DNA of 64,000 bases from Saccostrea echinata (GCF_033153115.1 NW_026889762.1:5788496-5852495), one strand, 5' to 3'. Positions 15,986-50,075 are shown, counted from the stretch's first letter. Numbers and translations are program-made. The notes: generated by a model from the letters alone, not told the origin.

Positions 15986-16123
15986 ATGACAACAGAGGGA
16001 GTGTTTGCTGGTTGTCAGGTAGTCCTTGACCTCAGCACCAGTGTAGGTTTCAAGAAGAAACAGGAAGTCAGGAAAACCATCACAAACAATGGTGGAATTA
16101 TCTCGTACATTGTCACAAAAAAG
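15986..16123 (+). CDS. PARP4: PARP4-like exon 1 (start codon; BRCT domain N-part) MTTEGVFAGCQVVLDLSTSVGFKKKQEVRKTITNNGGIISYIVTKK
   Basis: Aligns with human PARP4 N-terminus MVMGIFANCIFCLKVKYLPQQQKKKLQTDIKENGGKFSFSL. Exon opens after acceptor at 15955-56; ATG at 15986; donor AAG|GTAAGA at 16124. Frame stays open upstream of the ATG, so a further 5' exon is possible. Confidence 0.7.
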
Positions 16124-16402
16124 GTAAGAAGCATATTTTTATAATTATTTAAATTAAAATTATTTTTTGCAAGGTTAAAATATCTACACTTGTAAAAGTG
16201 TTGAAGTGGTGTACAAAATTGACTGTTTTAAATGAAGCAGAAAGGTTTAAAAGTTTTTAAAATTCTCAAAAAGTACATGCATGTATTTTGCATATGAATT
16301 GGGTCATTAAGCGGCCCCATTTATAGACAACTGAGAGCCCTGATGAAGGGCCGCTATAAGCTAATAAGATTTACGCATTCTTAATGCCGACTTTTCTTAC
16401 AG

Positions 16403-16601
16403 AGTACCCATGTTGTGCTCAATGATCCAGAAAAAGCTGATGTCAGCTACAAATGTAAAATGGCTGAGAAGTTCCGAATCCCCGTGGTGTCCCTCGATTT
16501 TATTTTTGACTGTGTTGACCAGGGGAAGCAACTCAACACTGACAATTATCTCCTAGTGGGTAAAACGAAGGCCCAGGAATTCAGCAGCGGCAAAATTATG
16601 G
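16403..16601 (+). CDS. PARP4: PARP4-like exon 2 (BRCT domain) STHVVLNDPEKADVSYKCKMAEKFRIPVVSLDFIFDCVDQGKQLNTDNYLLVGKTKAQEFSSGKIMG
   Basis: Matches human THIILDNADVLSQYQLNSIQKNHVHIANPDFIWKSIREKRLLDVKNY. Acceptor ttttcttacAG at 16401-02; donor G|GTAAGG at 16602; ends phase 1. Confidence 0.85.
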
Positions 16602-18187
16602 GTAAGGATGAGAAAAAATAAAAATAGAATCTCAACAGCTGTTTGAGACTTTCTGCAGTATAAGGAAGGTTCGTCGGCCATTGTTTGGCTTTACATCACT
16701 TTGAGAATGCTGAGTCATCATTAATTAATTGTTGGTTGAGAGCTGTAAAATTTAGACCTATACATAGCATTTAATTATGAGGAAGGAATTCAAATAGGGA
16801 AGTTGTACAAAGACTGAAATGCTTTTAGAATTATATTTTTTGTGTCAGGTTCTTTCTTGTTCTAATTATTTATTCATGAACAAGTTCATTGATGATTATG
16901 AAAGTCGATCTGTTATGACATTTTAATTGATGATTAGTGCATTGCACATTAACAACATAAGCAACATTTACATAAACTTAAACATTTTTGATACATCTGT
17001 AAAGAACTTTTAAAAAACAAAGGTTATTGATTAGATGTTTATTTTACAAAATGAATTTTAATTTCTATATCAATGAATTAATTTCAAATTGGTAAAAAAA
17101 AAAGGATAACATCCATTTCGCAGCTAGGTTAAGGACTCCCACATATACGTCAGCCTATGCAGAGGTTTGGTAAAGTTATTATGACGTCACGTTAAAACAA
17201 TACAAATGAATCTCGATGAATAAATACCATATTTTCTTTTTAAAACACACTAAATACTTTCGTTTATCATAAATATTATAAAGATAAATGGATGTGCAAC
17301 CTATCTTCAAGTTGCCATAATAGCACTTAGCGTATATAGAATGAAAGCATGAAGCTTGATCTCGCTGTACTTACTGAGATGACGTCATTTCTTAGTTTGA
17401 CACGCAATTTCTCTGTACTTGAGGCGTGGATCAAGCTTTTATTGTAGCTTGTAGAAATGAAAATAAATACGAAACACGTGTAGTCGGACCAAAAGAGAGA
17501 AATATTCTGAAGTATATTAATCCACATTTTATTGTCAAATTAAATTGATAATGTGTAGACTTTATATAAAGCCGTAGGGAGCACATTTGTACAGTAACGT
17601 GCTAGAATGACAGGTCCAGCCCCTCGAAAATATCAAAAGTTCAACGATATCCGCTTCACTATAAATTCTGAATTTTTAAACACGTATAGCTATTATTCCT
17701 GCTATTCTGAAAAGTGCTGGGAGCTGGTTTGCATTGTTGATTTATTCCGTAATGTAACATTATTCCAATGCGAATTACATTTTTGACTGGAGTTTATAGA
17801 AAGACGGCTAAATTTTAAACAATTCCCGAGCATGAGGAAGTTGCTCCCGGCACTTTTCGTGTTAAGGAATTTGTCTCAAAGAAAACAGAACAAATCTTAT
17901 AGCCGAAAAATGCCCGTATATTGTTGAACTTTTATGACCTTTGTAGTAGTACATATATGTTCTAATTTTAAAACTGTCACGTGACAAACAGCTGATGTAA
18001 GCGATGTCGCTTTGGCTGAACTCAGCAGAGTCCCGATATATACAAGTGCAAACACCACAAATCACATTTATCAAAACTAATGCTGTTAAAAAAAATATTA
18101 AAATTGTATTCATTTTCCCTGAATATATTAAGGCGTATATTTCATGGGCGTCCTTAACCTAGCTGCGTTTTTTTTCTTTTTGAAAAG

Positions 18188-18336
18188 CTGGGAAATCTGG
18201 ACCTAAACCTGAGGGGAAAAAGAAGAAAACGGTGTCTAGTTTTAATCCAAAGTCGGTGAGAGTTTGGCAGGAGAGGGATAAGAACATGCCCCAGTTTGAT
18301 GACGGAAGTGAATTGGCCAAATTTGCCATGCTTCAG
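18188..18336 (+). CDS. PARP4: PARP4-like exon 3 (linker) AGKSGPKPEGKKKKTVSSFNPKSVRVWQERDKNMPQFDDGSELAKFAMLQ
   Basis: Phase-1 entry completes GCT. Poly-pyrimidine acceptor ...ttttctttttgaaaAG. Donor CAG|GTCGGT at 18337. Confidence 0.7.
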
Positions 18337-18564
18337 GTCGGTTATACACTATCGATCATGTCTTTGGTTAAAAAAAATTCCACTGTTGAATATTTTTATG
18401 GTACATTTAGCAAATTTTTAACAAGTACTAAACTGCAAAAAATTGAAAGATCTTTATATGTTTCTGATCATGTTTGATTGATACCAGAGAATTATTATTT
18501 TTAGACAAATTGATCAAAATTGTGAATAATCTAGGATCCTTACAGATATTTATCTGTTTTACAG

Positions 18565-18705
18565 AAATATGACAAGAAAACACAAATAACACAGTTCTGT
18601 GTGTTAGAGATTCATGCATCCAGAAGAGTTATTGCCCTTGACAACAAGGAACAGTCCCCTAGGTTCTGTATTTGCTCTCACCTTGGCAGTGTGCAGGAAG
18701 TACAG
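18565..18705 (+). CDS. PARP4: PARP4-like exon 4 KYDKKTQITQFCVLEIHASRRVIALDNKEQSPRFCICSHLGSVQEVQ
   Basis: Similar to human ...VVVELQCSRDSRDCPFLISSHFLLDDG. Acceptor tatctgttttacAG at 18563-64. Donor CAG|GTGTGT at 18706. An alternative acceptor at 18544-45 is not excluded. Confidence 0.65.
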
Positions 18706-47924: not shown

Positions 47925-48093
47925 GAGGCATCACCAGTCGTGATGGACATGGGTTCACTTTTGATGAAGGCGGGATTTGCTGGAGACCACGCCCCCCGAG
48001 CAGAATTTGAGACAACTGTTGGACGTCCCCGACATCAGGGCGTGATGGTTGGCATGGGACAGAAAGATTCATATGTTGGAAAAGAGGTTACAG
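47925..48093 (+). CDS. Exon encoding an actin N-terminus-like segment: [56 protein letters not shown](G)
   Basis: Collinear with actin residues 4-58 ([57 protein letters not shown]), yet too divergent for a bona fide actin. Acceptor tttttaAG at 47923-24; donor ACAG|GTTAGG at 48094; phase 0 to 1; in frame with the preceding exon. Confidence 0.45.
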
Positions 48094-48433
48094 GTTAGGA
48101 ATTTTGTAACTTTAATAAAAAACCCTTTCTTGTATCAGTACATGTAATGGGAATTGAATTTAAGTTATCACTTCAGACTATTTTTATCAAAGCTTTTCTT
48201 ACTTTTAAGTGTGATGTTCTACTTTCTATTGTTTATTTATCTTTCAAGTTCTTAAATAGTTCTTATTTGAGTTGAAATTTTTGCATAATATTAAAAAATA
48301 ATGATTTTTACCATAATGTCTTAGGAATTCCAAAATCACCAGATTATTAGGACAAATGTACTCATGATATTATTTGCTTGATAAAGAATTCAATACATTA
48401 AATACAAAAAATGAAAAAAAGTTTTTTTTATAG

Positions 48434-48496
48434 GAACAAAACCTGTTGTAGGAAGAGTTTTGGAAGAGTATTCTTCAAAACATATATTTATGGAAG
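48434..48496 (+). CDS. Short exon (G)TKPVVGRVLEEYSSKHIFME, unassigned
   Basis: Acceptor ttttttatAG at 48432-33; donor GAAG|GTAATG at 48497. Phase 1 in and phase 1 out, the only open frame; no similarity recognised. Confidence 0.35.
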
Positions 48497-49149
48497 GTAA
48501 TGCTTTATTTCTAATAAGGAAGCCTTGCTGCTAAGAACAAAATTAATATTACTAAATTAAAACTACAGAAATTGTATTTAAGAATGCCATGGTCACATTA
48601 AAATAAAAAATGCATATAAAGAAATGAGAACATATGTTCACGGGTATTTGAAAAAAAGTGTTTTTTATGACAATGACTATAAAAACTGTCACCTGAAAAA
48701 AATCATTAGCATACATTTCATAATATTTTTAAGCTTGATGTAATTTCATCACCATTAAAGCAAAGTTTAAAGGTGTTTTACACCATTTCAATAACCTATA
48801 TTGTGATAAGAACAAATTAATATTACACATAGTAACGTATTTGATGTTGGCAATGATAAGATAAATGTAGCATGTATTTTAGGATATCAGTTGACATATC
48901 TCATTGAGTTTACAATAAGTTGTTTGCATGGTTATAATTAACATTAATAACCATCTATCAAAATTTTGAAATTCAAGGCTTCTTGACTTTATGGTGCAAT
49001 CCCAAGTAAAGAACTAAGTTGGTCATTTGTTAAACATATGACAGGTTTGAAAATCTTGTTTCTCATTTAAATGTTGCAGAGCAAATTTAGAACACAAGCT
49101 GGATGAATGTGTTAAAAGATGAAAGCTTCAATACACAGCACTTTATTTT

Positions 49150-49750
49150 TCTTCTGTGTCCAGACCTGTTTCTAGTGGGATCACAATAATCTTAGCATAA
49201 GAATTCCATGATACTTGGGTGGTCTCAACCTGATCAGTAGTCTAACTTGAGTAATGGTCTTAACCATAACAGGAGTCTAATCTTAATCTGAGCAGTAGTC
49301 TTAACCTGATCAGTTGTCTAGCCTGAGTAGTTGTCTTAACCTGATCAGTTGTCTAACCTAAGTAGTTGTTTTAACCTGATCAGTTGTCTAACATGAGCAT
49401 TTGTCTAATGTGAGCAGTTGTCTAACCTTAGCAGTTCTCTAACCTGAGCAGTAGTGTTATAACCTGAGCAGAGGTCCTAACCTGAGCAGTAGTCTAAGCC
49501 TGAGCTGTAGTCTTTACCTGAGCAGTTGACTAAACCTGATCAGTAGTCTTAACCGGAGCAGAAATCTTAACCTGAATAGTTGTCTAAGCCTGAGCAGTAG
49601 TCTAACCTGAGCAGTGGCCTCAGCCTGAGCAGTTGTCTTAACCTGAGCAGTAGTCATAGCCTGAGCAATAGTCTTTACATGAGCAGTTGTCTTATAACCT
49701 GAGCAGAAGCCTTAACCTGAGCAGTTGTTTTAACCTGAGCTGTAATCTAA
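49150..49750. repeat. Intronic minisatellite of about 33 copies of an 18-bp unit TAACCTGAGCAGTWGTCT
   Basis: Direct read; imperfect units (cctgagcagtagtct / cctgatcagttgtct, etc.). Confidence 0.9.
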
Positions 49751-49995
49751 GCTGAGAAAATCATTGATAATACTCGGGTGTCAAACAAGACCCATGAGCA
49801 ACTTGTCCAAACTTCATGAAATGTATGAAAGACAAGTGTAGTAAAAATTTCAAGTCTTGAATGCATGTAAACATAGGGACTACTGGTGAAACTGTAGAAT
49901 ACTTTCCACATGTTTAACTCTTTTAAGTTTGTTAACATAATATTGAAATAACAAAAGACACTGTTTATAGAATGTTCCAGTCTTTTTGTTTTTAG

Positions 49996-50075
49996 AAGAC
50001 ATTGGTGAAACTTTGGAATCCCCTGAATCAGAATATGAGGGATCCTCGGAGGAAACCCCATCTAAGAGTTTGTAA
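49996..50075 (+). CDS. Candidate terminal coding exon (E)DIGETLESPESEYEGSSEETPSKSL then stop
   Basis: Acceptor tttttgtttttAG at 49994-95; phase-1 entry (g + aa = GAA) matches exon 33. TAA at 50073-75. A paralogous exon lies at 58555-58704 with the same frame conserved (...ESSESEPEGAYESL*). With this exon the whole 34-exon CDS is 4335 nt (1444 aa). Confidence 0.4.

Follow-up and report, generated by a model that had tools for sequence, protein, structure and literature searches.

Introduction

Where does the PARP4-like gene of the oyster Saccostrea echinata end, and does its product keep a counterpart of the C-terminal MVP-interaction (MINT) domain of human PARP4? The window analysed here is a stretch of 64 000 nucleotides from this species (GCF_033153115.1, NW_026889762.1:5788496–5852495), AT-rich (GC about 0.33) and eukaryotic, and all positions are counted from its first letter. 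An earlier note on this DNA had described a vault-PARP-like gene of 34 exons and had held that the vertebrate MVP-binding region was not recognizable in it, a multi-exon poly-acidic tail taking its place. We find that the gene is a PARP4 orthologue whose transcript is likely to splice at a donor at position 50068, ahead of the annotated stop codon, and to continue past the end of the window to exons for an Hsp70 substrate-binding domain (SBD) and a MINT domain. The intervening linker is built of many small exons, some of which resemble segments of other host proteins.

Gene identity and core domains

The window gene is already annotated in RefSeq and is an ordinary gene of a well known kind. 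The S. echinata PARP4-like protein XP_061177489.1 (P0001; 1406 residues) maps to the plus strand with 100% identity over 33 exons and 4221 nt, from an ATG at 15986 to a TAA at 50073–50075, the same start and stop as in the earlier note. The acceptors of this model are AG throughout and the donors are GT with one exception, in agreement with the claim that all introns carry plausible signals. The exception, CAG/GCAAGA at 30701 (intron 19; the slash marks the exon–intron boundary), is a GC donor and the only non-GT donor in the gene. The two models differ by 114 nt because the earlier one contains an additional exon at 47606–47719. Adding this cassette exon (114 nt, phase 0-0, acceptor ttccAG, donor GTTAGT) to the RefSeq model yields 34 exons, 4335 nt and 1444 residues with one terminal stop, which reproduces to the nucleotide the coding sequence free of internal stops that had been reported; all of the peptides quoted with it are found in the translation. 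The core of the gene comprises 25 exons between 15986 and 33858 and is followed by a long tail of many small exons. The call itself adds little, the protein being in RefSeq and PARP4 being known across animals, and the value that had been placed on annotating an invertebrate vault-PARP is moot.

For the comparison with the PDB and Pfam, the query was a crude concatenate of the plus-strand open frames between 15.9 and 34.3 kb. Its top PDB match is the full-length human PARP4 chain from cryo-electron microscopy of the vault (11jf, 9bw6 and 9bw7; E = 2.9e-132), in a single alignment in which the stretch from the ADP-ribosyltransferase (ART) domain through VIT to VWA is colinear with the human protein; the heavy chain ITIH1 is matched with an E value of only 5.6e-5. 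The helical domain (HD) and the ART domain match the human PARP4 crystal chain 8sx1 end to end over human residues 249–569 (E = 1.2e-68), compared with only about 1e-16 for PARP1 and PARP2. The catalytic H-Y-E residues are kept (in LFHAS, GIYFA and DDEYVVY), and a helical and ART region with these residues intact is predicted to be an ADP-ribosyltransferase. The region after the VWA domain aligns with human PARP4 to about residue 1214 and is kept in all homologues examined. In a search of a protein collection, all 120 of the 120 matches listed are PARP4 or PARP4-like, the best being XP_061177489.1. Pfam recovers the BRCT, PARP, VIT and VWA domains in the order given in the earlier note, and its identification of the gene as PARP4, rather than as an inter-alpha-trypsin-inhibitor heavy chain (ITIH), agrees with the best matches. 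On these alignments, the assignment as a PARP4 orthologue is secure, with a match far beyond chance.

The 3' end of the gene

The stop codon at 50073–50075 sits 5 nt past a consensus donor, AAG A/GTTTGT at 50068, and the last codons before it read …TPSKSL. Beyond this donor lie further in-phase exons with AG and GT signals (Table 1), which extend the reading frame to 40 exons, 4725 nt and 1575 residues without a stop. At the GTAAGT donor at 62579 the extended open reading frame (ORF) has not closed, and it therefore runs off the window. A second S. echinata protein, XP_061195145.1 (P0123; 2494 residues), which is encoded on another contig, splices at the equivalent of 50068 and goes on; the downstream exons of the window are 91–99% identical to it. 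After the exons that it shares with the window, XP_061195145.1 contains proline-rich and WH2/acidic-like segments, FG-rich sequence, an Hsp70 SBD (Pfam, 112 bits) and a C-terminal domain of ∼150 residues. The two S. echinata PARP4 loci, on different contigs, are 99.2% identical in the core and 90.9% identical, with indels, in the distal tail; they may be haplotypes or products of a recent duplication. An independently made model from Crassostrea (Magallana) gigas, K1PUC2, likewise joins a PARP4 core to actin-like, P-stalk-like and Hsp70 SBD segments.

RefSeq also contains an 'uncharacterized protein LOC133186389' (P0122; 287 residues), encoded on a contig equal in length to that carrying the window gene. 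The protein begins in the middle of an Hsp70 SBD and ends with a C-terminal domain of the XP_061195145.1 type. Given this start, it is a fragmentary gene model, and it looks like the detached 3' end of the window gene; we infer its continuity with the window exons. A tblastn comparison of the window with the tail pieces of K1PUC2, the Hsp70 SBD and the MINT domain recovered only the actin-like exon and tail exons of XP_061195145.1, so that the SBD and the MINT domain lie beyond the window. The 3' end in RefSeq and in the earlier note is thus probably an intron read-through, as judged from the sequence, and the locus has probably been split wrongly into two genes. The MVP-binding region was missed because the earlier model stopped too early, at an intronic stop codon; a MINT-homologous end is present in the second S. 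echinata copy. Nor does a poly-acidic tail replace that region: the ORF continues over 50204–62578, and the tail includes R-SNARE-like and actin-like exons and is not purely acidic.

The sequence around the annotated stop belongs to a duplicated unit (49996–50269 and 58640–58902). In each copy an acidic exon with the end A/GTTTGTAA is followed by an intron of ∼135 nt and then by a short P.F/INPD exon ending /GTATGT, and read-through at the donor of either copy (50068 or 58697) leads to the same immediate stop after SL. As the A/GTTTGTAA donor is repeated at 58697, within the extension, the 'stop' at 50075 is best regarded as a by-product of the duplicated exon–intron unit.

The C-terminal MINT domain

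By sequence, by profile and by predicted fold, the C-terminal domain of oyster PARP4 is homologous to the human MINT domain. In XP_061195145.1 and LOC133186389, the sole PDB sequence match of this domain is to human PARP4 residues 1581–1716 (E = 0.0014). The human MINT interface includes residues S1614, K1618 and R1689 (PMC12280208), and the oyster domain has equivalents of S1614 and K1618. In a local phmmer search it matches about 60 vertebrate PARP4s at their extreme C-termini, and hhalign of an oyster, mussel, jellyfish, coral and Trichoplax profile against a vertebrate profile gives a probability of 99.6% (E = 8e-24). An AlphaFold2 (AF2) model of the fragment from Saccostrea cucullata is an eight-helix bundle with a predicted local distance difference test score (pLDDT) of about 80 in the core. 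The top Foldseek match of this model is 9bw6_B, the MINT chain of the human vault–PARP4 structure, with a probability of 1.00 and a TM score of 0.61, the remaining matches having probabilities of at most 0.09. The family PF26156 is precomputed on the same S. cucullata fragment. A word-indexed search with the oyster domain returned close bivalve fragments only, and the homology to vertebrates rests on the local phmmer, hhalign and fold searches.

A MINT-type domain is part of PARP4 in oysters and mussels and, by alignment, also in cnidarians, sea stars and Trichoplax. MVP is itself an abundant bivalve protein (PMC5302490). Lodwick et al. suggest that PARP4 came to occupy the vault late, in vertebrates only (PMC12280208); a MINT domain conserved in invertebrates, as the alignments indicate, sits uneasily with such a late occupancy.

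Modules of the tail

The five short acidic exons that follow the core are separated by repeat-rich introns containing tandem repeats. Further on, the cassette exon at 47606–47719 resembles an R-SNARE motif: it scores 38.7 bits against Pfam Synaptobrevin (cut-off 26.4) over profile positions 9–46 of 89 and matches the VAMP4 SNARE motif (2nps, E = 7.5e-7), Nyv1, VAMP8 and YKT6. The alignment starts in the preceding exon, and the zero-layer arginine is present, the arginine of VLERGEKL aligning with that of the SNAREs. The segment covers about 42 residues of the motif only, with neither a transmembrane segment nor a longin domain, and the next exon is actin-like. The SNARE-like exon is missing from the S. 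echinata RefSeq models and is found in S. cucullata XP_062620696 (P0124), directly before the actin-like exon; it is a credible cassette exon because the homologous exon is included in that RefSeq model.

The actin-like exon scores 36 bits against Pfam Actin (cut-off 27). An actin fragment occurs at the same tail position in PARP4-like proteins of Crassostrea, Pinctada, Mytilus, Nematostella, Rhopilema, Ptychodera and Amphiura. In these fragments GRPRHQ is invariant, and seven of eight PARP4 sequences match actin exactly over the D-loop stretch ending (V/I)G; the phosphate loop DNGSG is replaced (DMGSL in the window) and varies among species. As judged by this pattern of conservation, the exon preserves a copy of the D-loop region without being a functional actin. 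Both the SNARE-like and the actin-like module exceed their Pfam cut-offs, and comparable fragments recur across phyla.

The product of the exon at 62328–62375, EEEDEDMCFGLFD, resembles the end-peptide of the ribosomal P proteins. An acidic-MxFxLF motif is present in 12 of 120 PARP4 tails, those of three teleosts with DDMGFGLF among them, compared with 0.14 expected from shuffled sequences, and the tail of Aplysia PARP4 exceeds the Pfam Ribosomal_60s cut-off (31.1 bits). In the window, the likeness is a motif-level resemblance only, backed by this enrichment across homologues. Near-perfect P-stalk end-peptides (DEDMGFGLF, VDDMGFGLFDDD and DDDMGFGLF) are found in the PARP4 linkers of the teleosts Gymnothorax (P0062, residue 1272), Cyprinodon (P0072, residue 1234) and Cololabis (P0090, residues 1246 and 1282), just as in PARP4 tails of molluscs, and the motif is therefore not restricted to invertebrates. 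A degenerate P-stalk-like motif, SDLEAEIEEEMSFCLPEDG, is encoded in an ORF at 54065–54229 (plus strand, frame 1) and lies ∼100 nt upstream of the exon at 54316. XP_061195145.1 shows two copies of a repeat unit, 'acidic-MxFGLF + ELPKKKAPP', of which this motif may be a decayed or an alternative version.

The tails of other PARP4 proteins contain ubiquitin-like segments, the C-terminal half of 14-3-3, a SNAP-25-like motif, Snf7, calmodulin or an Hsp70 SBD, and the order of the modules from the N- to the C-terminus is fairly constant. In Mercenaria, Gigantopelta and Nucella (P0009, P0010 and P0012), the LRLRGG of the ubiquitin-like module is followed by proline. Ubiquitin fusions with proline in this position resist deubiquitinases, and the ubiquitin would stay attached. 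Appended domains of this kind are partly known: 14-3-3, actin and ubiquitin domains on PARP4-like proteins were described by Perina et al. (2014; PMC4245714). A literature search found no statement that the additions to PARP4 are partial fragments located in a linker ahead of the MINT domain, and no report linking PARP4 to integrated decoys or to the P-stalk/GFGLFD peptide.

Table 1. Features of the PARP4 locus in the window. ART, ADP-ribosyltransferase; ORF, open reading frame.
Feature	Position	Strand	Evidence
RefSeq-equivalent coding sequence	15986–50075	+	Exact P0001 mapping, splice-site table
BRCT domain, exons 1–2, residues 3–95	15992–16549	+	Pfam BRCT_2 35–40 bits, BRCT 27–38 bits
Helical (regulatory) and ART catalytic domain, exons 6–12, residues 265–580	19256–24167	+	8sx1 match, Pfam PARP 65–103 bits
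VIT domain, exons 13–15, residues 626–743	25699–27008	+	Pfam VIT 111–124 bits
VWA domain, exons 18–21, residues 879–1037	30142–32071	+	Pfam VWA_3 36–75 bits, VWA 47 bits
Conserved post-VWA region ending FVAIEKREK, exons 21–25	32072–33858	+	Alignment to human PARP4
Acidic tail, five short phase-0 exons (34238–34333, 35050–35103, 39110–39199, 40225–40281, 44483–44533)	34238–44533	+	Exon table
R-SNARE-like cassette exon, 38 residues (KFQRNDVWEIQQIMKENIENVLERGEKLDSLIEKSELM)	47606–47719	+	Pfam Synaptobrevin, VAMP4 match, splice sites
Actin-like exon, actin residues about 5–62 including D-loop	47925–48093	+	PDB actins E = 6e-20, Pfam Actin
Two tail exons (48434–48496, 49996–50067)	48434–50067	+	Donor A/GTTTGT at 50068, read through in the RefSeq and earlier models
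Further in-phase exons, seven counting 49996–50067 as the first	50204–62578	+	tblastn of P0123, DNA reading, open ORF
Downstream exon	50204–50269	+	In phase, AG/GT signals
Downstream exon (ELPKKKAQQTE)	54316–54350	+	In phase, AG/GT signals
Downstream exon, poly-Pro	58555–58696	+	In phase, AG/GT signals
Downstream exon	58831–58902	+	In phase, AG/GT signals
Downstream exon, P-stalk-like EEEDEDMCFGLFD	62328–62375	+	In phase, AG/GT signals
Downstream exon	62544–62578	+	In phase, AG/GT signals

Alternative explanations

Several points weigh against an oyster PARP4 that splices at 50068 and ends in a MINT domain. Every exon junction is computational, and the exons for the MINT domain are not within the window; the oyster domain does not conserve R1689, a residue of the human MVP interface, and Lodwick et al. 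find the PARP4-contacting residues of MVP only in vertebrates (PMC12280208). RefSeq moreover ends the window copy at 50075 and annotates the SBD and MINT end as a separate gene, LOC133186389, and the RefSeq protein XP_019920273 of C. gigas (1285 residues) likewise ends in an acidic tail. With two such models, a short MINT-less isoform may be real. The same annotations, together with a transcript-like Logan contig (P0007) that ends in acidic sequence, although the contig is itself incomplete, are what one would cite for a gene that truly terminates at 50075, whose MINT-less product with its acidic tail acts outside vaults and whose downstream exons belong to another gene. We consider this unlikely, since the stop lies only 5 nt after a consensus donor in a configuration that recurs at the internal donor 58697, the downstream exons are in phase, open and joined to the core both in the other S. 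echinata copy and in K1PUC2, and the LOC133186389 model, starting within the SBD, is fragmentary.

The actin-, SNARE- and P-stalk-like pieces could be pseudo-exons or homology-driven prediction artefacts, that is, intronic fragments of retro-copies with no function in PARP4. Gene predictors do draw on protein homology; the SNARE-like exon has a low, intron-like GC content (0.31) and is left out of two of three Saccostrea models, and the calmodulin fusion in Pinctada comes from a non-RefSeq model. The P-stalk-like motif of the window, taken alone, is not significant (Pfam Ribosomal_60s, 11 bits, E = 0.64, positions 75–88 of 88), and it is internal and not C-terminal. An artefact is nevertheless quite improbable: the SNARE-like and actin-like exons have consensus splice sites and compatible phases, the actin fragment keeps the same boundaries and tail position in bivalves, cnidarians, a hemichordate and a brittle star with an invariant D-loop between diverged flanks, the P-stalk-like motif far exceeds its expectation from shuffling, and Perina et al. 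independently found appended actin, 14-3-3 and ubiquitin domains (PMC4245714). As for the core, the VIT and VWA domains also make up the ITIH architecture and ITIH1 is a weak PDB match; that this part comes from a heavy-chain-type gene instead of PARP4 has a negligible probability and is rejected on the scores and on exon continuity, the PARP4 match being colinear over ART–VIT–VWA, all of the top matches listed being PARP4 and the BRCT, ART and VIT–VWA exons lying in a single unbroken, phase-consistent ORF.

Comparison with known systems

Human PARP4, or vPARP (9bw6, 9bw7, 11jf and 8sx1), shares with the oyster protein the order BRCT, HD, ART (H-Y-E), VIT, VWA, linker and MINT, and each of the two proteins has a long disordered linker between its core and its MINT domain. 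The oyster linker is encoded by many small exons, is strongly acidic and contains copies of host-protein segments, whereas the human linker is encoded by one large proline-rich exon 30 (PMC4038475). The copies in the oyster are the R-SNARE, actin 5–62 and P-stalk-like segments and, further on, the Hsp70 SBD and WH2/acidic segments; the human interface residue R1689 is unmatched in the oyster.

The 'Clade 5' PARP4-like proteins, reported in lancelet, sea urchin, Capsaspora, a choanoflagellate and amoebae, resemble the oyster protein in combining PARP, VIT and VWA with additional C-terminal 14-3-3, actin or ubiquitin domains (PMC4245714). That study gives Pfam domains only, whereas the additions described here are partial fragments (actin 5–62 only, the C-terminal half of 14-3-3, half of an R-SNARE motif and a P-stalk end-peptide) on separate small exons in the linker upstream of the MINT domain. 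Among closer relatives, C. gigas XP_019920273 and K1PUC2 are 74% identical orthologues; K1PUC2 shares the order of actin-like, P-stalk-like and Hsp70 SBD segments, but neither model extends to a MINT domain or contains the SNARE-like exon. The ITIH heavy chains have VIT and VWA in common with the oyster protein but lack BRCT and ART, and the similarity is weak.

A possible role for the linker

In the proposed arrangement, the transcript would splice at 50068 instead of ending at 50075 and would continue through exons to 62578 and beyond the window, adding the parts found in the second S. echinata copy: proline-rich and WH2/acidic segments, an Hsp70 SBD and, at the C-terminus, a MINT domain. 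If the oyster protein behaves like human PARP4, its MINT domain would anchor it to the inner wall of the MVP cage, while vault components or cargo would be mono-ADP-ribosylated by its N-terminal half. Between core and MINT, the flexible linker would hold short copies, each the size of an exon, of binding segments found in abundant host proteins; in the window these are an R-SNARE half-motif, actin 5–62 with its D-loop and a P-stalk-like acidic-MxFGLF peptide. The copies would most likely serve as tethered ligands, bringing to PARP4 and the vault the partners that the copied proteins have.

Disordered or appended copies of host targets on an effector domain are known from the integrated decoys of plant NLRs and from the protease 'tripwire' linker of NLRP1. 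The oyster effector differs in being an ADP-ribosyltransferase in the vault and not an NLR, and the link to pathogens is made here by analogy alone. Extended to the present gene, the analogy would make the linker an exon-modular bait array, composed of copies of short stretches of abundant, invariant host proteins that are commonly bound or modified by toxins and effectors. Its modules would include the R-SNARE half-motif, the actin D-loop and the P-stalk-like peptide in the window and, elsewhere, uncleavable ubiquitin, the C-terminal half of 14-3-3, SNAP-25-like, Snf7, the Hsp70 SBD and a WH2/acidic segment. Pathogen factors or host partners captured in this way would be handed to the ADP-ribosyltransferase inside the vault, and the linker would correspond, in invertebrates, to the disordered, positively selected stretch of mammalian PARP4 that exon 30 encodes. 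In mammals, this exon shows recurrent positive selection, and Daugherty et al. propose that it forms a pathogen interface (PMC4038475). Compatible with a bait function are the differences in modules between orders, the actin D-loop that stays unchanged while its flanks drift, and the distal tail, whose divergence between the S. echinata copies runs at about ten times that of the core. The same data fit a housekeeping role as a cargo adaptor equally well and do not distinguish the two; we put the bait array forward as a speculative and rather doubtful proposal.

Repeats and a neighbouring open reading frame

An 81-bp minisatellite of 9.3 copies occupies 29283–30034 (and 29968–30103), its unit being derived from the acceptor of exon 18 and the first 27 nt of that exon (ACMLTFYPE). 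The real exon, at 30088, is thereby immediately preceded by a row of decoy acceptor sites. A block of residues 861–869 mapped to 29370 was rejected as an exon, since this sequence is one of the minisatellite copies of the exon 18 start. In intron 6, 36-bp and 30-bp minisatellites (19426–20017 and 20141–20265) begin 33 nt past the donor of exon 6 and fill most of the intron. A 166-bp satellite of 16.5 copies lies in a tail intron at 36005–38718, with relatives (frame …KNLLLKNHWARKAETYVEAS.GSVDS.LFK…) in other tail introns at 45497–45925, about 55250–56060 and about 57500–57770.

On the minus strand, ∼8.4 kb upstream of the PARP4 start, an uninterrupted ORF of 446 residues (MLYSMAVSSGNYTVDDD…VWQVIDVDSER) extends over 6206–7546. 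Searches of Pfam (E below 0.01) and of PDB sequences gave no match to it, and it may be an intronless lineage-specific gene.

Implications

The value of the analysis lies in the corrected extent of the gene and in its unusual linker, the tail being the interesting part. A MINT domain in invertebrates bears on the suggestion that PARP4 entered vaults only in vertebrates (PMC12280208). The linker copies of host-protein segments sit where mammalian PARP4 evolves fastest, and the modules point to candidate binding partners of PARP4 and the vault, namely Q-SNAREs, actin and translation GTPases or ribosome-inactivating proteins.

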